From an uncultured Bacteroidota bacterium (GTDB lineage Bacteria > Bacteroidota > Bacteroidia > JABEUT01): a stretch of 64,000 nt of DNA. Shown piece by piece: positions 12,732 through 58,977 of this stretch (the first letter of the stretch is position 1; each line of letters opens with the position of its first letter). The stretch lies in the NCBI GenBank assembly GCA_963767125.1, contig CAVYDB010000047.1:2585-66584 (forward strand), read 5' to 3'. Below the pieces are notes generated by a model, which worked only from the letters and a program-made list of their open reading frames with translations, ran no database searches and had not been told where the DNA came from. Made by a program: the position numbers and the translations under genes.

Positions 12732-14507
12732 ATGAGTGAAGTTAGTGGGAAAGCATTTGATTTTAAGGCATTCCGAAGGGTTTTGGAGTACCTGCGCCCA
12801 TATAAAACTGTTGCCTGGATAACATTAGTTTTAAGTATCCTGATTGCAGGATTTGCTCCCGTCATGCCTATTTATATTAAATACATTCAGGATACTGCAA
12901 ATAAACTGGGCGGAATTACAGGGAAACCATTCTTGCTTCAATCGTGCCTTATACTTTTTGGAATACTTTGTGCAAGGAGCGTTATTCAATTCCTGAATAC
13001 ATACCTTGCAAGTTTACTGGGGCAGCATATAATAAAAGATATGCGCATACAACTCTATAAACATATCCTGGAACTTAAATTGCAATTTTTCGATCGTACC
13101 CCTGTCGGAACATTGGTAACCCGTGTAACGTCTGATATTGAAACAATTGCCGAAGTATTTTCAGATGGATTAGTGGTAATTATAAACCAATTTCTTGTAG
13201 TAGTTGTTATCATAATTTTTATGATTTATATCAACTGGAAATTAGCCCTTTTGAGCCTCAGTGTATTTCCCATACTAATTTTTGCCACCTATCTTTTCCA
13301 ACGGGCTACCCGGTCATCTTTTCAGGATGTAAGGATACAGGTTGCAAGGCTAAATGCATTTGTACAGGAACACATTACCGGGATGAGTATTGTGCAGGTA
13401 TTTAACAGGGAAAAAAGAGAATTGGAAAAATTCAGGCAGATAAATAACAGCCACAAACTGGCAAATATCCGCTCAATTTGGTATTATTCCATTTTTTTCC
13501 CTGTAGTAGATATACTTTCCTCTACTTCCATAGCCTTGATAGTTTGGTGGTGTACAAGGGGAATGCTCCATGGTACCGAAACATCAGGCACTATTACGGA
13601 ATATGTTTTATTCATTAACTATTTATTTGGCCCTATACGCCAACTTTCCGATAAATTCAATACCCTTCAAATGGGTGTAGTAAGCTCGGAGCGCATTTTT
13701 AAGCTTTTTGATACAGAAAGTAAAATTACTGATTCAGGAACCCTATCACCCCATAAATTACAGGGCAAAATCGAATTTCAAGATGTATTTTTTGGATATA
13801 ACAATGATGACTTTGTACTCAAAGGTGTTTCGTTTGGTATTGAACCGGGAAAAACCCTTGCCATTGTGGGGGCAACCGGTGCAGGTAAATCATCCATTAT
13901 TAATATTTTGGGACGCTTTTATGAGTTTCAAAAAGGAACCATTTTTTTAGATGATAAGGAAATAAGGCAATATTCTATAGAAACCCTCCGTAAGAATATT
14001 GCTATCGTTTTGCAGGATGTATTTTTGTTTTCCGACACTATTTCAAATAATATTGCTTTGTACAATAAAAACATCACTCAATCACAAATTAAAGATGCGG
14101 CAGAAGCAATAGGCGCAGGCCAATTTATAGAAAACCTGCCCGGCAAATATGATTATAATGTAATGGAAAGAGGGGCTATGCTTTCAGTAGGACAAAGGCA
14201 ACTCGTTTCATTTATACGTGCTTACGTACAGAACCCCGCCATTTTAATTTTAGATGAAGCCACTTCATCTATTGATACAGAAACAGAAAGATTGATACAA
14301 ACGGCTATTGAAAAACTTACCGAACACCGCACATCTATTATCATTGCACACAGGCTTGCTACTATTCAAAGAGCAGACAAAATTTTGGTACTCGACCATG
14401 GAGAAGTAATGGAATCGGGCACCCACCAGGAGCTTTTACAAAAAGATGGTTTTTATCGGAAACTGTATGAAATTCAGTTCCAAAAGGAAGAAAAACTAAG
14501 GGCATAG
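12732..14507 (+). CDS. ABC exporter, fused permease/ATPase (MsbA/MdlB-like)
   Basis: TM domain; Walker A GATGAGKS; signature LSVGQRQ; Walker B ILILDEATS; H-loop IAHRL. Confidence 0.95.
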   Translation: MSEVSGKAFDFKAFRRVLEYLRPYKTVAWITLVLSILIAGFAPVMPIYIKYIQDTANKLGGITGKPFLLQSCLILFGILCARSVIQFLNTYLASLLGQHIIKDMRIQLYKHILELKLQFFDRTPVGTLVTRVTSDIETIAEVFSDGLVVIINQFLVVVVIIIFMIYINWKLALLSLSVFPILIFATYLFQRATRSSFQDVRIQVARLNAFVQEHITGMSIVQVFNREKRELEKFRQINNSHKLANIRSIWYYSIFFPVVDILSSTSIALIVWWCTRGMLHGTETSGTITEYVLFINYLFGPIRQLSDKFNTLQMGVVSSERIFKLFDTESKITDSGTLSPHKLQGKIEFQDVFFGYNNDDFVLKGVSFGIEPGKTLAIVGATGAGKSSIINILGRFYEFQKGTIFLDDKEIRQYSIETLRKNIAIVLQDVFLFSDTISNNIALYNKNITQSQIKDAAEAIGAGQFIENLPGKYDYNVMERGAMLSVGQRQLVSFIRAYVQNPAILILDEATSSIDTETERLIQTAIEKLTEHRTSIIIAHRLATIQRADKILVLDHGEVMESGTHQELLQKDGFYRKLYEIQFQKEEKLRA

Positions 14508-14708: not shown

Positions 14709-15026
14709 ATGTCTATTCATAAAAAGTGGTCAAATTACACCAGAAAAAACGCTTCCGCAGAACCTGAAAATTATGGTGTTTACGAAATTGGCGATATTGA
14801 AACTGGGGCAATTTTATATATTGGAGAAGGTAATATACGTTCAGGTTTATTAGCACATACTCCTGATGGAGGAAAGAATAAACATGTTTCAATATTCGGC
14901 ACTTCTATTGTAGGCTTATATGGTTACCGTTTTGAGGTTACTGATACCCGGGAAAAAGCTAAGCTAAGACAAAAAGAATTATTAAAGGACTTTCAAAAAG
15001 ACCTATCATTCCCTTCCTCGTTTTAA
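14709..15026 (+). CDS. Small divergent GIY-YIG-like protein
   Basis: GVY-x10-YIG motif (YGVYEIGDIETGAILYIGEG); residues at the usual catalytic Arg and Glu positions are not clearly conserved. Confidence 0.55.
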   Translation: MSIHKKWSNYTRKNASAEPENYGVYEIGDIETGAILYIGEGNIRSGLLAHTPDGGKNKHVSIFGTSIVGLYGYRFEVTDTREKAKLRQKELLKDFQKDLSFPSSF

Positions 15027-15179
15027 CCAAAAACAGGAGAAGTCAGCTACCCCGGTGTTTATATAATTGTTGCTGTTATTTTTCACTTTGTATTCTCGCT
15101 TTCTTAATTAAGTGCCATTTTGAGAAATGGCTTTCAACGTTATAGACGTTACCTATCACTTTTAGTTTTCACTGCCTTG

Positions 15180-15307
15180 TGCCCCCGCTAGGAATCCCCG
15201 TCCGAACGGGTCATCCGGGCGGGGAACATAGATCAGAAGTTCCGGAAACTTCCATACTATCCCCGCCCGACTGAATGTCGTTCGGGCAGGCGTTGTACTA
15301 TAAAGCC
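15180..15307 (-). pseudogene. tRNA-Arg(CCG) pseudo-copy with 29-nt D-loop and 27-nt T-loop hairpin insertions; additional T-stem and acceptor mismatches
   Basis: Aligns to tRNA 15940-16011 after removing the two inserts; first 10 nt overlap the end of the GIY-YIG ORF. Confidence 0.85.
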
Positions 15308-15543
15308 TTTAGTTTCTTTTGTAGAAATCTTCTTCCTGCTGCCGATTTAAAATATTTTTCGCGATTAATAGCCTCCTCCCTTGATTCAAATTCTTCTGAA
15401 TAACTTATTTTAAAGGGAATAAAGGGTTTTATTGAGGATGTCTTCCCTGAATTGTGTTCCTTTAATCTTATTTCAAGATTCTCGCAATGTCCTTTGTAAA
15501 AGTATTCATGGTTAAGGCTTTTTAAAACATACGCATAAAACAT
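15298..15543 (-). CDS. Stand-alone GIY-YIG nuclease (YhbQ/UPF0213-like), copy 2
   Basis: Y3-A-Y5, Y16-K-G18, R26 (RLKEHN), E62 (AINREKYFKS). Confidence 0.9.
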   Translation of the reverse strand: MFYAYVLKSLNHEYFYKGHCENLEIRLKEHNSGKTSSIKPFIPFKISYSEEFESREEAINREKYFKSAAGRRFLQKKLKAL

Positions 15544-15559
15544 TTTAAAGGTTTTAATG

Positions 15560-15687
15560 TGGCCCCGCTAGGAATCCCCGTCCGAACGGGTCATCCGGGC
15601 GGGGAACCTAGATCAGAAGTTCCGGAAACTTCCATACTATCCCCGCCCGACTGAATGTCGTTCGGGCAGGCGTTGTACTATAAAACC
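15560..15687 (-). pseudogene. tRNA-Arg(CCG) pseudo-copy with 29-nt D-loop and 27-nt T-loop hairpin insertions
   Basis: Identical to the intact tRNA from position 8 onward apart from the two inserts. Confidence 0.85.
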
Positions 15688-15923
15688 TTTAGTTTCTTTT
15701 GTAGAAATCTTCTTCCTGCTGCCGATTTAAAATATTTTTCGCGATTAATAGCCTCCTCCCTTGATTCAAATTCTTCTGAATAACTTATTTTAAAGGGAAT
15801 AAAGGGTTTTATTGAGGATGTCTTCCCTGAATTGTGTTCCTTTAATCTTATTTCAAGATTCTCGCAATGTCCTTTGTAAAAGTATTCATGGTTAAGGCTT
15901 TTTAAAACATAAGCATAAAACAT
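15678..15923 (-). CDS. Stand-alone GIY-YIG nuclease (YhbQ/UPF0213-like), copy 1
   Basis: 80/81 aa identical to copy 2; ATG lies 16 nt after the tRNA discriminator base. Confidence 0.9.
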   Translation of the reverse strand: MFYAYVLKSLNHEYFYKGHCENLEIRLKEHNSGKTSSIKPFIPFKISYSEEFESREEAINREKYFKSAAGRRFLQKKLKVL

Positions 15924-15939
15924 TCTAAAGATTTTAATG

Positions 15940-16011
15940 TGGCCCCGCTAGGAATCGAACCTAGATCAGAAGTTCCGGAAACTTCCATACTATCCGTTGT
16001 ACTACAGAGCC
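15940..16011 (-). tRNA. tRNA-Arg(CCG), 72 nt, CCA not encoded
   Basis: Cloverleaf folded by hand: acceptor GGCTCTG/CGGGGCC, D arm GTAC/GTAT, anticodon arm GAAGT-TTCCGGA-ACTTC, T arm CTAGG-TTCGATT-CCTAG. Confidence 0.95.
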
Positions 16012-16715
16012 AATTTTTTAAAGGATTGTAAAAATAGAAAGAATTTATAATTTTAATAAAATGACAGTAAAAAGAGTTTCGTAAACTTTCATACTATCCC
16101 CGCCCGACTGAACGTCGTTCGGGCAGGCGTTGTACTACAGAGCCAATTTTTTAAAGGATTGTAAAAATAGAAAGAATTTATAATTTTAATAAAATGACAG
16201 TAAAAAGAGTTTCGTAAACTTTCATACTATCCCCGCCCGACTGAACGTCGTTCGGGCAGGCGTTGTACTACAGAGCCAATTTTTTAAAGGATTGTAAAAA
16301 TAGAAAGAATTTATAATTTTAATAAAATGACAGTAAAAAGAGTTTCGTAAACTTTCATACTATCCCCGCCCGACTGAACGTCGTTCGGGCAGGCGTTGTA
16401 CTACAGAGCCAATTTTTTAAAGGATTGTAAAAATAGAAAGAATTTATAATTTTAATAAAATGACAGTAAAAAGAGTTTCGTAAACTTTCATACTATCCCC
16501 GCCCGACTGAACGTCGTTCGGGCAGGCGTTGTATTACAGAGCCAATTTTTTAAAGGATTGTAAAAATAGAAGGATTTTATAATTTTAATAAAATGACAGT
16601 GAAAAGAGTTTCGCAAACTTTCATACTATCCCCGCCCGACTGAACGTCGTTCGGGCAGGCGTTGTACTACAGAGCCAATTTTTTAAAGGATTGTAAAAAT
16701 AGAAAGAATTTATAA
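16012..16715 (-). repeat. Tandem array of five 133-bp units plus a 39-bp partial unit; each unit is the tRNA upstream region plus a tRNA-Arg 5' half with D-loop insert
   Basis: Unit ends (agagcc) at 16144, 16277, 16410, 16543, 16676; units 1-3 identical, five substitutions confined to 16534-16614. Confidence 0.95.
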
Positions 16716-16725
16716 GTGGATTTTT

Positions 16726-19700
16726 CTATTCTTCATCTTCAACCTCATGTAACGCAACATGCAAGTGATTATCTTTTACAAAATTGCACCATTGGCAATC
16801 TTCCTTACCGCATCCTTTACTAAATTCATGGTTTTGTATTTTTTGCCAGGTATCGGTAATTTGGTCAAGAACTATGGCAATATCTTCCTTACTTATAATT
16901 ATTTTCTCTGCTTTATATTCGTCTTTTACCGGCTCTATAAAATCAAACTCAGCACTAATGGCATCCCAATCATTATATTTCTGATTATCTAATAATATTT
17001 TATAGAATACTGCCTGTCTCCAATAATCGCCCCCAACGGTGTCATCACCAATGGGTCCTTTTAGTTTCTTTCTGGCATTATGCATATCTGCCGGTCTTAT
17101 AATCCACCACGTTTACTTTTTTACCATCAAATTCAAGCTTATCTAACTTACCATTCAGGGGCACTCCTTCAACTTCCACATTACGGATATTCTTCTCCAG
17201 AATTACAATCTTATTCCACTTTTTAATGTAAAAGTTATAATAAGGTGGCAATATTTTATCACCATATTCCAGTCTGCGGTTATATTGTTCTTTAGTAAAT
17301 GATTCTCTATTACGATACATAAACCGCCTGAAATCATCCATCATTTTCTCTTTAGATGGAAATATGTTGCCTTGAGCTTTCATCTTCTCAAACAAAGCCT
17401 GTAACGTAGAGTGTACTGCACTCCCAAATGCCATTGACTCTCCTTTGGCAGCAGGCACTCTAATTAAATTCTGATAGTAAAATTTAATCGGGCAATCCAA
17501 GTAATTATTCAGATGGGTTACACTTAAAGAATAATTTTGAAGTAAACTATCTAAATAGTTTTTATCAACCAATTCTATTTGAGGTACAGCCTTGGCAGTA
17601 TATTGTAATTCGAGGTATTTAATAAGTATGTTTTCCTCCGCCTTTTCTTCTTTTACTTCAATACTTGTTCCTTCCATAATCTCCCCTACAAAGGCAGAAC
17701 GCTCCATCCCCTTATTCTTATTTTCATTATCCTGTACCGAATATGAAATTGTAAGGTGTGTTTTAGCCCTGGTCATAGCAACATAAAAAAGCCTCCTTGC
17801 TTCTTCCAATTCATTTACCTCATATTTTTCAGAGGAGAAATTATCGGGCAATTTAAACTCATACTGGGAAGAAGATTTTTTATCATCCCAGATATTTTTA
17901 TTACAGCCAATTAAAAATACGTATTCATATTCTGTGCCCTTGGAGCCATGAGCAGTAACAAGATTAACCCCATCAGCGGTGGAAGACACTTTTACCAAAT
18001 CGAGCCGGATACGATTGTTCTGCATGGTTTCAATCATGTCGAGTAATCGTTGCAAGCTGATGGATGGGTCTTTATGGGTTTCCCCTTTTATAAAATCAAA
18101 CAGACCAGTAATAACCTGCATCAGCCAGGGCTTTTCGTCAGAATTTAAAACATAGTTCAATATTCCTGCCTCACGCACCACTTCTTCAAATAAGCCCTGT
18201 AAAGTAAGATTCGGCGAGGCTTTAATAAGGCTTTCCAATATATTACTAACTCTTTTTATTTCACTTACTTCCTCCGTACTGAATAAATCGGGCTTGGACG
18301 AACTCCCCTCTTCACTGATAGCACGGCGAATTGATGTTCTCTCATTGCGGTTACCATAGTTTTTCTGGGCGACCTGCAAGCTTAATCTTGCTATATCAAT
18401 GGCCGGAATAGTAAAGAAATCAAAATGCAAAATTTCAAATAGCATTTCATCTCCGCTATATGCCACATCTATTTCTGCGGCAATAAATTCAAGGATTTTA
18501 AGTATTTTATGAACGAATGGCAATTCCAATAAATTCACATTCCGTTTCATATTGTAGCTAATGCTCTTCTTGTCTAAGTAGCCTGATAGCTCGTCCACCT
18601 GCTTATGGTTACGGTATATAACTGCAATTTCAGAAGGGTCTATTTTGTCTTTAACAAGTAATTCTTCTATTTTATGCGCAATACATATTGTTTCATTAGA
18701 AGGATTGGGATACTCGATAATTTGGGGTAGTATTTTTAAATCCTTCACTACAGGATTGGAAGCAACTAAGTTTTTATCCTGAGACACCCTCTCTTTATTA
18801 TGCTCAATAAGGACTTTCGCAGCATCTAATACAGCCTGGGTAGAGCGATAGTTTTCTGTCAATACCACTTTGAAAAGCAGGCTGGAATACTCGTTGGCAA
18901 AACCACGAATATTTTCCACGTTCGCATCCTGAAAAGAAAATATAGATTGGTCATCATCACCCACCACAAACACATTCGGGGCATCCCAATAATGGATAAG
19001 ATGCTCGAGTAATTTCTTTTGCGAGCCGCTTGTATCCTGGAATTCATCTACCAAAAAATATAAAAACCGCTCCTGGTAATTGAGCAGAATATTATTGTTT
19101 TCTTCAAAGGCTTTCAGCACCCACAAAATCATATCATCAAAGGTGTATCGCCCTCTCTCTTGCATCATTTCATCATAGGTAGGGTACAGATTAACTGCTT
19201 CCCGCAGTTTTTCCATTCTTTCTTTTTCCTCTTTTATCCTATCTTCATTCGGCTCTCCTGCCTTATATTCCTTGTAATTTCTTTTATAAAAAAATCCATC
19301 TTTACCAGGGAGTTCTGCCAAATAAGCATCTATTCTCCCATTCAAAAATTCCAATGTCCATGCTTCTTTTTTTATCAGTGAAAAAAGATTCTTCACTTTG
19401 GGTATTTCATAATTTACTTCACCTTTAAATCTCTTTAGCAGGCTATCATTTGGAAGGTTGCTTAATAATTCCTTGAATAATTCTATTTCCTCTAACTCTG
19501 AAATAGCTTCTAAATTTTGCCTGCCGAAATAAGAGAGATTATCTTGAATCACCTCATTACAAAATGAATGAAAAGTGTGAATATTTACCCTATAAGCTGC
19601 CGGTCCTATGAGCTTGAATAGCCTGTTACGCATTTCAACCCTTCCGGTATCGGTATAAGTAAGACAAAGAATGCTATGTGGGGGAGTGTCGGTCTGCTGC

Positions 19701-19864
19701 AATATTTTACCTATCCGCGTAGCCAGAATTTGGGTCTTTCCGGTTCCCGGTCCTGCTATAACAAGCACAGGTCCCTCGATGTGTTCAACAGCCTGGCGTT
19801 GGGCTTCATTAAGCTTTTGAAAAGCCCTTGTGAAAGCTAAATCAACTAATTTATTATTCATCAT
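16726..19864 (-). CDS. UvrD/PcrA-type SF1 helicase fused to PD-(D/E)xK nuclease (AdnAB/AddA-like); one +1 frameshift near 17085
   Basis: AGPGTGKT, VDEFQD, VGDDDQSI, TAHGSKGTE, EARRLFYVAMTRAK; nuclease motifs GKLDKLE and VVDYKTG; continuation ORF 16726-17085 has QAVFY and CGKEDCQWC. Confidence 0.85.
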
Positions 19865-40478: not shown

Positions 40479-40564
40479 CCCGCCCGAATGTCAGCCCGAA
40501 AGATTCCTGCCCCAAAGGTGAGGTTAGGCGGGCATTCTGGAGGGTACCATCCGGTACGGGCGGG
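40479..40564. repeat. Three nested GC-rich mini-hairpin elements
   Basis: Outer CCCGCCCG...CGGGCGGG perfect 8-bp stem; inner 27-nt CCTGCC...GGCGGG at 40506-40532. Confidence 0.7.
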
Positions 40565-56517: not shown

Positions 56518-56805
56518 CCTAAAGGGATAAGGTCACCAGTACTGCAACCCTGCCCTAAGTATTTATCTTTTCTGATACTAAACTGCACAGTGATTGGCAC
56601 CAAGAAGGTAGAATTGAAAAAATAAAGAGTACGAGATAGTTTACCTTGCTGTAAATATCAACCCTGCTTATATCTACATCATGTTTCCATTTTATTATTT
56701 ATTCAAAATGTATTTGAATACCTCGTGGTGAAAATATTGAGACGCGAGAATGGCCTTCTTTTCATCAATGCAAATTTTGGTAATTTTGTACCAAATAATA
56801 TAACT

Positions 56806-58977
56806 ATGAAAAAGAATTTTATTCTCTTATTTGTATTGGTTTGTTTAGGAAGTATAGAAACTACGGCACAATATAGATATACCGTTCTGCATTATTTCAA
56901 TGATTCTGCAGGAGGCAACCCTAAAGGTGCATTAACTCTATCTAATGGAGTTTTATATGGAATGACAAGAGCCGGCGGTGCAAATCATGACGGAATAATA
57001 TTCTCTATGGATACTGCCGGTACCATCTATACCGACTTGATGGATTTCAATGGAATAAATGGCTCAAGTGCGGAAGGCTCATTAACTTTCTCCCGGAGCA
57101 CCATGTTTGGAATGACCTCTCTGGGAGGAGCCAGTGGTAAAGGTTGTATTTTCAAAATATTAACCAATGGCAGCGGATATGCTGACTTGCTTGATTTTGA
57201 TTCTGCCAATGGCGCTAACCCACAGGATAATGTTACCTTATCAGGTAATAAAATGTATGGAATGACTTTAAATGGAGGGGCACATAACTGCGGGCTTATT
57301 TTTTCGATTGATACCAATGGGGCTAATTATGTTGACCTGCTTGATTTCGACACAGCCAACGGAGCATACCCCTATGGTTCTCTAACCCTTGCAGGTAATG
57401 TATTATATGGTACGGCATCCTTAGGAGGAGACTCTGTTAACGGTTGCGTATTTTCAGTTCATATTGATGGTTCAAACTATAAAATTATGCATAGTTTTAG
57501 TGGAATACGGGGCAGCAGACCTTACGACCCTGTGGGCTCTTTACTGCTTGCCAAAAATATGTTATATGGCATGACCAGGCGAAATTATGCCCTTAATCCC
57601 TGGGGTAACAATGGTGCCATTTTTAAAATAGATACCAATGGAAATACATTTACTGAAATGGCAGATCCAAATGCACTGCCGCAGGGTTCATTCATACTGA
57701 AAGATAGCGTACTTTACAGCATGACACCAACGAATGCCGGGAGTAACTTATATCCGCACTTTGAGGCGGGAGATGTTTTCTCAATAGATACTGGTGGAGG
57801 TGGTTACGAGAGCATTCATGGTTTTATAAGACATGGATACCTGGGCGATGGAGGATGCAAGTCGCTGACACTGGCAACGAATGGATTTTATGGTATGACT
57901 ATGAATGGCGCTGACAGTACCAGTAGAATTTACACTGGTAGCGGAGTCATTTTTAAATTGGTAGATACCGGTGTTTATTATCCACAGGTAACTATGAGCA
58001 TCCACAATGTTTCATGCAACGGAGGCAGTAATGGAACAGCAATTGCCAGTGTAAGCGGTGGATTTTCTCCTTATACTTACTTCTGGCAGCCAAGTGGAAA
58101 TTCTACCGATAGTATAGGCGGGCTGAGTGCCGGAACTTATACTCTTTCTGTAACTGGAAATAATGATTCAACTACCAATGTTTATGTTACCATAACACAA
58201 CCGGCAATATTGAATCCACTAGGCTATATTATTGCCAATGTATCTTGCAATGGTGGAAATAATGGTATTGATTCTGTTTCAGGGAATGGCGGTGCATCTC
58301 CCTTTACCTATCTCTGGAACGATGCCAATAGCCAAACTACAGCCACGGCTATCGGGCTAAGTGCAGGAACTTATACAGTTAGTGTTTCTGATTCTTGCGG
58401 TAATTCTGCCACAACATCTGTTATAATAACACAACCAATAGCCCTGACTATGATGGCAGATTCATCTGACGCCACATCCGGAAATTGTGATGGTTCCGCA
58501 TGGGTTATAGTCAATGGAGGCACAACCCCCTATACCTATTCATGGACGGGAGGACTTACTACCGATACCATATTAAACCAGTGTACCGGAGATTATTGCT
58601 GCACAATTGCTGACGTTAACGGATGCATAGATAGTATTTGTGTAAATATTGATGTTTCGACCGGAACCAATCAGTTAGAAGGGGAAAGTGAAAAGGTAAA
58701 AGTTTATCCAAACCCGAATGATGGTCTTTTTACAATTACGCTCGGTCATGCCGAACTTGCCCGCCCGGATGAATCGGTCGGACGGGTTTCGGCATCCCAA
58801 CCTATTGTAAGGATATTTAATGTATTGGGGCAGCAGGTATATTTTGCGACCCTGAAACAAGTTCTGGGTGACAATTTCATTGATATTTCGTCTCAGCCTG
58901 ACGGGGTTTATTTTTATAGAGTATTAAGTGAAACTGGAGGATTAATAGGAGAAGGAAAGCTGGTGATAGTGAAATAA
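56806..58977 (+). CDS. T9SS-secreted protein with tandem G..P.G.L...LYGMT..GG beta-propeller repeats (TIGR03803/GloVer-like) and SprB-like repeats (start moved from 56725)
   Basis: Signal MKKNFILLF preceded by TAATTTTG (56781-56788); VSCNGG..G...GG..PYTY.W repeats; VYPNPN...GVYFYRV...GKLVIVK. Confidence 0.85.
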   Translation: MKKNFILLFVLVCLGSIETTAQYRYTVLHYFNDSAGGNPKGALTLSNGVLYGMTRAGGANHDGIIFSMDTAGTIYTDLMDFNGINGSSAEGSLTFSRSTMFGMTSLGGASGKGCIFKILTNGSGYADLLDFDSANGANPQDNVTLSGNKMYGMTLNGGAHNCGLIFSIDTNGANYVDLLDFDTANGAYPYGSLTLAGNVLYGTASLGGDSVNGCVFSVHIDGSNYKIMHSFSGIRGSRPYDPVGSLLLAKNMLYGMTRRNYALNPWGNNGAIFKIDTNGNTFTEMADPNALPQGSFILKDSVLYSMTPTNAGSNLYPHFEAGDVFSIDTGGGGYESIHGFIRHGYLGDGGCKSLTLATNGFYGMTMNGADSTSRIYTGSGVIFKLVDTGVYYPQVTMSIHNVSCNGGSNGTAIASVSGGFSPYTYFWQPSGNSTDSIGGLSAGTYTLSVTGNNDSTTNVYVTITQPAILNPLGYIIANVSCNGGNNGIDSVSGNGGASPFTYLWNDANSQTTATAIGLSAGTYTVSVSDSCGNSATTSVIITQPIALTMMADSSDATSGNCDGSAWVIVNGGTTPYTYSWTGGLTTDTILNQCTGDYCCTIADVNGCIDSICVNIDVSTGTNQLEGESEKVKVYPNPNDGLFTITLGHAELARPDESVGRVSASQPIVRIFNVLGQQVYFATLKQVLGDNFIDISSQPDGVYFYRVLSETGGLIGEGKLVIVK
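58745..58796 (+). repeat. REP-like palindrome GTCATGCCGAACTTG|TTTCGGCATC carrying a 27-nt hairpin insert (58760-58786), translated in frame
   Basis: Insert is 24/27 identical to the tRNA T-loop insert. Confidence 0.8.

Follow-up and report, generated by a model that had tools for sequence, protein, structure and literature searches.

How does a unit of 380 bp whose only gene encodes a small nuclease come to stand twice in tandem behind an intact tRNA gene, interleaved with disabled copies of that same tRNA and without a recombinase gene of its own? This question is raised by a locus on the minus strand of the 64,000-nucleotide (nt) stretch of Bacteroidota DNA analyzed here, which we call the window and in which all coordinates are positions. 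On balance, we think that the locus is a recombinase-less selfish cassette of tRNA-Arg genes, built around an Ssn-like pair of a GIY-YIG nuclease and a DNA hairpin, and that it probably uses tRNA homology to persist, to amplify and to move. Read 5' to 3' on the minus strand, the locus runs from the end of a helicase gene through a promoter/leader, five 133-bp units, an intact tRNA-Arg(CCG) and two 380-bp units into unique sequence. Its features are as follows.

16726, minus strand: end of the helicase/PD-(D/E)XK gene, the upstream boundary of the locus
16677..16713, minus strand: native tRNA promoter/leader, 37 nt, ATAAATTCTTTCTATTTTTACAATCCTTTAAAAAATT, copied in all 133-bp units
16012..16676, minus strand: five tandem 133-bp stump units, found with TRF
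15940..16011, minus strand: intact tRNA-Arg(CCG) without hairpins, called by ARAGORN as 15939-16011
15924..15939, minus strand: first 16-nt AU-rich leader, from the tRNA discriminator to the ATG, CATTAAAATCTTTAGA, read from the sequence
15678..15923, minus strand: GIY-YIG open reading frame (ORF) copy a, 81 amino acids (aa), PF01541
15560..15687, minus strand: full-length pseudo-tRNA-Arg copy 2, with the acceptor 5' strand GGTTTTA and both hairpins, by comparison with the intact tRNA
15642..15670, minus strand: D-loop hairpin of copy 2, 29 nt, CCTGCCCGAACGACATTCAGTCGGGCGGG, between AACG and GATA
15577..15603, minus strand: T-loop hairpin of copy 2, 27 nt, CCCGCCCGGATGACCCGTTCGGACGGG, between TTC and GATT
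15544..15559, minus strand: second 16-nt leader, read from the sequence
15298..15543, minus strand: GIY-YIG ORF copy b, 81 aa, as copy a except for V80A and one synonymous change
15180..15307, minus strand: pseudo-tRNA-Arg copy 3, with two extra mismatches, a D-loop hairpin at 15262-15290 and a T-loop hairpin at 15197-15223

ARAGORN called a single tRNA in the window, the tRNA-Arg(CCG) at 15940..16011, which was also the sole CCG isoacceptor gene found in the assembly. Downstream of it, TRF reported a repeat of period 380 with 2.0 copies and 98% matches (15178-15956), in agreement with a first-pass annotation of this DNA that had described two direct 380-bp units. Each unit consists of a hairpin-disabled tRNA-Arg copy (with two hairpins here), the 16-nt leader and the 81-aa GIY-YIG gene. 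The units differ at 6 of 381 positions (98.4% identity), namely, two in the leader, one synonymous site and V80A in the ORF, one in the T-stem (15228) and one in the 3' acceptor strand (15182). The ORF was also said to run into the next tRNA copy. Indeed, alignment showed that copy a ends in AAG-GTT-TTA-TAG and copy b in AAG-GCT-TTA-TAG, that the last 10 nt are tRNA positions 1-10 and that the stop codon TAG falls on T8-A9-G10 of the tRNA in both cases; likewise, each ATG lies exactly 16 nt past the discriminator A (15940 and 15560), as had been stated. In contrast, the suggestion that GG(T/C)TTTA replaces the acceptor strand GGCTCTG did not hold. The two are 5/7 and 4/7 identical to that strand and still pair with CGGGGCC at 6/7 positions by means of G-U pairs, and in the sister genome G009 the ORF ends in TTG-GCT-CTG-TAA, with the acceptor strand GGCTCTG intact. 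Since GG(T/C)TTTA is thus a diverged acceptor copy, the duplicate comprises the whole tRNA. The distal pseudo-tRNA does carry the two extra mismatches reported for it (15228, G to T, in the T-stem; 15182, C to G, in the acceptor), but we could not follow the step from there to polar decay. Two derived changes in the distal copy stand against one in the proximal copy (C3 to T, 15685), and three substitutions that do not all point in the same direction establish neither a polarity nor an iterative addition of units beside the intact tRNA.

The first-pass annotation left out the GC-rich hairpins, although no other part of the system is as conserved or as diagnostic. Inserts aside, pseudo-tRNA copy 2 equals the intact tRNA over positions 17-55 and 56-73. 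Each pseudo-tRNA holds a 29-nt hairpin in its D-loop and a 27-nt hairpin in its T-loop, both clean and without target-site duplication: AACG|GATA and TTC|GATT are continuous in the intact tRNA and are filled by the 29-nt and the 27-nt inserts, respectively, in the copies. As single-stranded DNA (ssDNA), each insert folds into a hairpin of 8-9 bp. The matching pseudo-tRNA of G009 has no T-loop hairpin, which provides a filled/empty comparison. Because the T-loop insert is approximately the reverse complement of the D-loop insert, ORF copy b, which lies between an upstream T-loop and a downstream D-loop hairpin, is flanked by one element in inverted orientation. Directly upstream of copy a stands the intact, hairpin-free tRNA, and the nearest upstream hairpin is the D-loop hairpin of a stump (16099-16127). 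This stump variant, CGACGTTCAG, is one base away from the D-loop hairpin of the pseudo-tRNAs; one related locus (L095) has exactly this variant at the same site of its D-loop, and in another (L078) it forms the core of the hairpins. The 28- and 29-nt hairpins are letter-identical in Chitinophagaceae and Algoriphagus, despite saturation of the synonymous sites of the ORF. Hairpin types differ among lineages, with CCCGCCCGG...CGGACGGG in Chitinophagales, CCCGCCTGAACG...CGGGCAGG in Pedobacter and CCTGCCTGCCGGCAGGCAGG in Flavobacterium, the latter two sublineages having their own variants at a neighboring D-loop position.

The 133-bp array upstream of the intact tRNA (TRF period 133, 5.4 copies, 98% matches) is made of tRNA stumps. 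A unit contains a copy of the promoter/leader, tRNA-Arg positions 1-17, the 29-nt D-loop hairpin, a decayed D/anticodon arm with an ACG-like loop and 24 nt of unrelated sequence; four units are 100% identical, and the remaining one differs at 5 sites. As the stumps bear the promoter, they must be local duplications rather than products of the 380-bp circle-equivalent proposed below. No recombinase ORF was found between the ABC transporter gene, which ends at 14507, and the helicase gene, which starts at 16726, and the 380-bp unit holds the 81-aa ORF only. Similarly, there is no HUH/Y1 transposase between the hairpins, the GIY-YIG gene being the only ORF there.

Both ORFs matched the Pfam GIY-YIG profile PF01541 over residues 1-70 (49.9 bits against a cut-off of 22.6; E value of 4e-13). 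Residues Y5, Y16, G18, R26, H30 and E62 were invariant in 14 tRNA-associated homologues, and the catalytic residues of the 81-aa protein correspond to Y6, Y17 and E64 of the nuclease SsnA, mutants of which lose cleavage (PMC11893778). An AlphaFold2 model (pLDDT 93.3, pTM 0.79) predicts a three-stranded sheet with flanking helices, for which the best Foldseek matches were 1zg2 (UPF0213), the nuclease domain of Slx1 (7cq2, 4xm5 and 7cq3; TM-score of ~0.7) and the catalytic domain of I-TevI. By sequence, the nearest solved relatives are UPF0213 proteins. The protein amounts to the catalytic domain only, the DNA-binding extension being absent. Comparison of orthologues gave a nonsynonymous divergence (dN) of 0.2-0.35 with saturated synonymous divergence (dS), which points to purifying selection on the nuclease, and stops or truncations were seen in a minority of its relatives. 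With so few dead copies, the ORF is rarely pseudogenised, as the first-pass reading had implied. Judged from these alignments, the catalytic core is intact and the protein is under purifying selection. Elsewhere in the genome of the window (G000), beyond the window at C2:112249-112461 (minus strand), a truncated GIY-YIG ORF (MPFYVYILKN...) lies between a tRNA-Ser 3' fragment and an intact tRNA-Ser(TGA); by its arrangement, this remnant is a second, dead cassette of a different lineage.

We then compared the orthologous site in congeners, which, like the other genomes of the class, carry G numbers here. The helicase gene served as the locus marker, the order being helicase, promoter, tRNA. ORF, extra tRNA copy and hairpin were all absent from the site in six congeners (G003, G005, G006, G008, G010 and G011), where promoter and tRNA are followed by unrelated DNA. 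At five of these empty sites (G003, G005, G006, G008 and G011), the single tRNA is preceded by the same TTCTTTCTAYTTTTAC box. G002 has one stump and no ORF, and G009 has the full cassette with one or more stumps. In the window, pseudo-tRNA copy 3 abuts the native downstream flank (AGGCA...), which resembles that of the empty site in G003. On the helicase tree, G000, G005 and G009 form one clade and G002, G006 and G013 its sister clade, and to account for the filled, empty and stump sites on this tree, two or more gains or losses are required. The protein lineage is present in 3 of the 18 genomes of the genus. The proteins of G000 and G009 were not paired on the protein tree; independent acquisition in the two is nevertheless unsupported, since an approximately unbiased (AU) test did not reject the pairing that a common origin predicts (p = 0.31).

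To place the cassette in a wider frame, we used two surveys. In the first, covering 31 genomes of the class and 19 sampled loci, the small GIY-YIG ORFs adjoined co-oriented tRNA genes in 16 cases, the tRNAs being those for Arg, Pro, Ala, Ser, Asn, Asp, Glu, Gly and Met. Typically, the ORF separates an intact tRNA from a duplicate that is disrupted by a hairpin. In the second, the single 81-aa protein was used as the query against named genomes, which yielded 226 relatives, and the best 80 (52-75% identity) were analyzed as loci, designated by L numbers. These 80 come from Chitinophagales, Sphingobacteriales, Cytophagales, Flavobacteriales, Bacteroidales/Marinilabiliales and Ignavibacteriota, that is, from six or more orders. 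A same-strand tRNA-Arg (CCG, CCT or TCG) lies within 260 nt in 73 of them and another tRNA, tRNA-Glu, in 1, and the hairpin family of the window is found within the same distance in 64, against 5 matches in 170 kb of outer flank. Thus, the protein lineage, tRNA-Arg genes and the hairpin family are associated across the clade. Tandem arrays with two to five copies of the ORF occur at 11 of the 80 loci, among them L108 from Pedobacter terrae (5 copies, 310-bp period) and L078 (4-5 copies), whose contig names suggest long-read assemblies; 14 loci have a contig end within 300 nt.

Both polarities of the cassette were observed among these relatives. Where an intact tRNA-Arg stands upstream, it mostly ends 9-16 nt before the ATG; at 12 loci, the intact tRNA is downstream of the ORF, with an overlap of exactly 10 nt. 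The fixed relation of the junction to the tRNA on which the first-pass annotation had staked its reading is found in this clade, with the stop codon at tRNA positions 8-10 in 41 of 96 ORF copies from several orders, though other junction types exist. That annotation had likened the arrangement to an attL/attR duplication of a tRNA by an element without a recombinase. The direct tRNA repeats, the lack of a recombinase and the empty sites of congeners agree with this view, but the duplicate starts at tRNA position 1 rather than at a position-8 junction, and recombination through tRNA homology fits better than a fixed attL/attR at position 8 because relatives show both polarities. The isoacceptor label switches at least 3 times for CCG and at least 7 times for CCT along well-supported branches of the protein tree, and Algoriphagus nests among Chitinophagales. 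In Hanamia sp. SMAG_U1050, the lineage is represented twice, by a cassette at tRNA-Arg(CCT) (L072) and another at tRNA-Arg(CCG) (L080), which fall in separate parts of the tree.

The hairpins are not confined to cassettes. Genome-wide searches with the pattern CCYGYCCG-N8-16-CGGRCRGG gave 32 sites in G000, 20 in G002, 13 in G016, 8 in G009, 7 in G006 and 0 in eight congeners, compared to 0-2 matches across genomes, and 0 in G000, for the reversed pattern used as a control. Each of the three congeners with this protein lineage (G000, G009 and G006) therefore has at least 7 copies. In G000, the hairpin stands alone at ~20 further sites. One of these is in the window, in a C-terminal sorting domain of the type IX secretion system (T9SS):

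58760..58786, plus strand: solo hairpin, 27 nt, at an outer-palindrome apex, encoding ARPDESVGR in frame with ORF 56725-58977, within its T9SS C-terminal sorting domain

In-frame solo hairpins of 27 nt (9 codons, ARPDESVGR) are present in at least 12 long ORFs of G000, mostly in T9SS C-terminal sorting domains. The outer palindrome (...GAACTTG|TTTCAG...) was found empty in 8 cases and filled with the 27-mer, exactly at its apex, in 5. Since inserts lie in D-, T- and variable loops of tRNAs and at the apex of this palindrome, the data suggest that the hairpin may insert into loops of DNA that is itself able to fold. A fixed target motif was considered and dropped as a rule: GAT follows the insert in the D-, T- and variable-loop cases, but not in L005 or at solo sites. 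At 40479-40564, a 32-nt hairpin of the CCCGCCCGAATG...GGTACGGGCGGG type, of which an uninterrupted relative lies at C1:83873-83904 in G000, has its loop apparently split by ~50 nt with a further CCTGCCCC...GGCGGG hairpin, so that this site appears to be a nested hairpin insertion. Outside the window, at C31:49064-49141 of G000, ARAGORN reported a "tRNA-Stop (TTA)" 47 nt after a tRNA-Ala(TGC) that itself follows a tRNA-Ile(GAT), the latter two being the usual pair of the 16S-23S spacer. The T-arm of this call agrees with tRNA-Ala, and a 7-bp stem, TCCTGAC/GTCAGGA, forms the anticodon arm; judging by this, it is more likely a hairpin-substituted copy of tRNA-Ala than a suppressor tRNA.

What known system does this resemble? 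The closest precedent is the Ssn family, whose single-domain GIY-YIG enzymes, such as SsnA of Neisseria meningitidis, cut ssDNA beside hairpin repeats (NTS and the Ssn-related motif [SRM]; Chenal et al. 2025, PMC11893778). These repeats flank the gene itself and are dispersed in the genome, a layout that the authors liken to an insertion sequence (IS) (PMC11893778). Here, likewise, a single-domain GIY-YIG protein (81 aa; Ssn, 80-95 aa) is encoded by a gene flanked on both sides by an oriented hairpin of 20-50 nt that is also dispersed, with 32 pattern sites in G000. Unlike Ssn genes, the gene is nested between, and overlaps, copies of one tRNA; the hairpins number in the tens rather than the hundreds; and the nearest solved relatives of the protein are UPF0213 proteins and Slx1. 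The word tRNA has 0 mentions in the Ssn paper (PMC11893778). The published SRM motif, HGTCWYN(0-2)YYVSBRHN(0-5)WNVSBRGN(0-2)RNCYNB, had no match on either strand of 15100-16760 and 2 matches genome-wide, compared to 6-11 in shuffled genomes. By analogy, the cassette may work like an Ssn-hairpin pair, yet we stop short of assigning it to the Ssn family, because its hairpins fail the SRM motif and because tRNA has no place in the Ssn paper.

Other systems share single traits with the cassette. Short GC-rich hairpins that flank a gene, are dispersed, are inverted on the two sides and lack target-site duplication recall the repetitive extragenic palindromic (REP) elements with their transposases (RAYT) and the IS200/IS605 family, but no HUH/Y1 transposase is present and the sole protein is a GIY-YIG nuclease; to our knowledge, such nucleases do not rejoin DNA. 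Islands that integrases insert at tRNA genes (attL/attR) also duplicate tRNA sequence and keep one functional copy. In contrast to these, the cassette has no integrase, duplicates the whole tRNA including its 5' end, measures 380 bp and occurs in both polarities. Identity with either an integrase island or an IS200/IS605 element fails, since the unit encodes neither a recombinase nor a transposase. SegB, a free-standing GIY-YIG homing endonuclease of T-even phages, is encoded in the tRNA gene cluster of T4 and comprises ~220 aa with a DNA-binding domain; elements of its type are presumed to spread via nuclease-stimulated recombination through flanking homology. The cassette resembles it in having a GIY-YIG gene among tRNA genes and in its presence/absence polymorphism at a conserved site (six empty, one stump, one full), and differs in that the protein is a bare catalytic domain of 81 aa, that two copies of a single tRNA, one of them hairpin-disabled, form the flanks and that it is chromosomal in Bacteroidota, with no phage relatives found. 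Finally, Rickettsia palindromic elements (RPEs) are palindromic inserts that lie in frame within genes. The 27-nt hairpin in long ORFs is like them in this respect; unlike them, it is much shorter, belongs to a different phylum and is linked to a nuclease gene and to tRNA loops.

The mechanism that we infer starts from transcription. The ORF would have no promoter of its own and would be transcribed from the tRNA promoter; since the locus leaves no space for a second promoter, cotranscription with the tRNA is plausible. Processing of the tRNA 3' end would then release an ORF mRNA with the 16-nt AU-rich leader, and, more speculatively, RNase P might fail to recognize a copy whose two elbow loops carry hairpins, so that the stop codon would stay on the mRNA. 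By analogy with Ssn and Slx1, the nuclease may recognize its own hairpin, or folded ssDNA, and nick beside it. The nick would stimulate the tRNA repeats on either side of the ORF to recombine and so allow the 380-bp unit to be excised or reinserted. In the latter case, a 380-bp circle-equivalent (the hairpin-marked tRNA copy, leader and ORF) would recombine with a chromosomal tRNA: a crossover 3' of the D-loop hairpin would place the intact tRNA first, as in the window, and one 5' of it would place the intact tRNA last, as in many relatives. The same process might amplify units in tandem, which would account for arrays and for precise loss, and might move the cassette among similar tRNA-Arg isoacceptor genes. 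Since the assembly yielded a single tRNA-Arg(CCG) gene, selection would maintain one, and only one, tRNA free of hairpins. The hairpin, for its part, could spread alone as a nonautonomous passenger with a preference for the loops of other hairpins.

How firmly the selfish-cassette reading stands depends on what else could produce this locus. The nuclease-hairpin pair might be a domesticated host system that restricts or shapes incoming ssDNA in the manner of Neisseria SsnA, having borrowed the strong promoter of a tRNA and left the tRNA duplicates as by-products. Purifying selection on the protein, the Ssn precedent, in which a single-domain GIY-YIG enzyme acts in transformation and its hairpins are both flanking and dispersed, a distribution largely congruent with taxa and the lack of relatives found on phages or plasmids all speak for such a system. 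We nevertheless regard it as unlikely, given that only 3 of 18 genomes of the genus carry the lineage, that six orthologous sites are empty and that decayed copies exist; moreover, a host function leaves unexplained the constant disabled flank made of the same tRNA, the two polarities and the arrays, and ~30 hairpins per genome contrast with hundreds for NTS. Passive tandem duplication is a simpler proposal. Unequal crossing-over or slippage would have duplicated an ordinary small gene beside a tRNA, and dead DNA would have gathered the hairpins as unrelated REP-like elements. Repeats do recombine without a dedicated enzyme, the 133-bp stumps include the chromosomal promoter and hence are local duplications, and hairpins are found at many unrelated sites too. 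However, protein, tRNA-Arg and hairpin are found together at 64-73 of 80 loci from different orders, GIY-YIG genes of other lineages are lodged in other tRNA genes with hairpins of their own (16 of 19 loci), and the hairpins occupy defined loop positions of the tRNA copies and are conserved far beyond neutral expectation, so that this explanation strikes us as quite improbable. We give still less credence to the notion that assembly of a strain mixture or of misresolved repeats produced the second unit of 380 bp and the five of 133 bp, the true locus being one cassette and one stump. It draws on the state of the genome (49 contigs, 79% complete), on the complete identity of four 133-bp units and on the 14 of 80 related loci that break at contig ends; against this, 6 scattered differences separate the 380-bp units, one of the 133-bp units deviates at 5 sites, and similar arrays occur in contigs named like long-read assemblies (L108 and L078). 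Such an artefact would change copy number only, leaving the cassette itself unaffected.

Several points weigh against the selfish-cassette reading. Nuclease activity, excision and transcription of the cassette are predictions from sequence, the tandem copy numbers come from a metagenome-assembled genome and are uncertain, and the SRM motif as published does not describe the hairpins. G002 and G016, with 20 and 13 hairpins, respectively, have no member of this protein lineage, so the link between hairpin and protein is not exclusive; hairpins persist without the protein lineage and perhaps also spread without it. The protein tree largely follows taxonomy, and much of the distribution could therefore be vertical with frequent loss. 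Within the clade of G000, G005 and G009, it is possible that one old insertion and a loss in G005 suffice for the observed pattern. Lastly, searches of 50,697 phage records, 72,556 plasmids and IMG/VR contigs for relatives of the protein yielded none, and hence no vehicle of horizontal transfer emerged from them.

The copy in the window is a well-preserved, recently amplified member of a widespread tRNA-nested cassette, in its tRNA-Arg lineage. This nuclease-hairpin cassette is apparently undescribed: our literature search returned no account of tRNA-nested GIY-YIG cassettes in bacteria, nor of a link between GIY-YIG, tRNA and pseudo-tRNA or hairpin. A bolder and more doubtful proposal is that the nuclease and the ~28-nt hairpin constitute a new minimal class of mobile element, in which the enzyme would cut folded ssDNA at hairpin or cloverleaf loops, the circle-equivalent would be the autonomous form with the tRNA as portable homology arms, and solo hairpins in tRNA loops, palindrome loops and, in frame, genes would be nonautonomous derivatives. 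If the selfish-cassette reading is correct, many small genes of Bacteroidota annotated as "GIY-YIG nuclease family" would be selfish passengers of tRNA genes and not repair enzymes, and pseudo-tRNAs, arrays of tRNA stumps and assembly breaks at tRNA loci would be accounted for. It would also carry the newly characterized Ssn principle of a nuclease paired with a hairpin over to elements nested in tRNA genes, with a testable specificity of lineage for tRNA, and the in-frame spread of the hairpin into regions coding for secretion tags would be a Bacteroidota counterpart of RPEs. The protein-hairpin pairs are candidate site-specific ssDNA cutters with new specificities.

Two neighbors of the cassette deserve mention. 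On the plus strand, a 105-aa ORF of DUF7508 (14709-15026; PF24348, E value of 7e-12) converges on the end of the cassette and has no counterpart in the orthologous loci of congeners. The motifs YGVYEI and ILYIGEG, noticed by eye, had suggested a divergent GIY-YIG protein, an idea that we abandoned because the profile comparison was not significant (probability 1%). A search of NCBIfam gave no hit for the GIY-YIG ORF or for the neighboring ORF. On the other side, the AddB-like helicase/PD-(D/E)XK gene is split on the minus strand into ORFs of 928 aa (17078-19864) and 119 aa (16726-17085) that overlap by 8 nt (17078-17085). In all congeners, this gene is a single open frame of ~1050 aa, and its split beside the stump array is either a frameshift or an assembly error.

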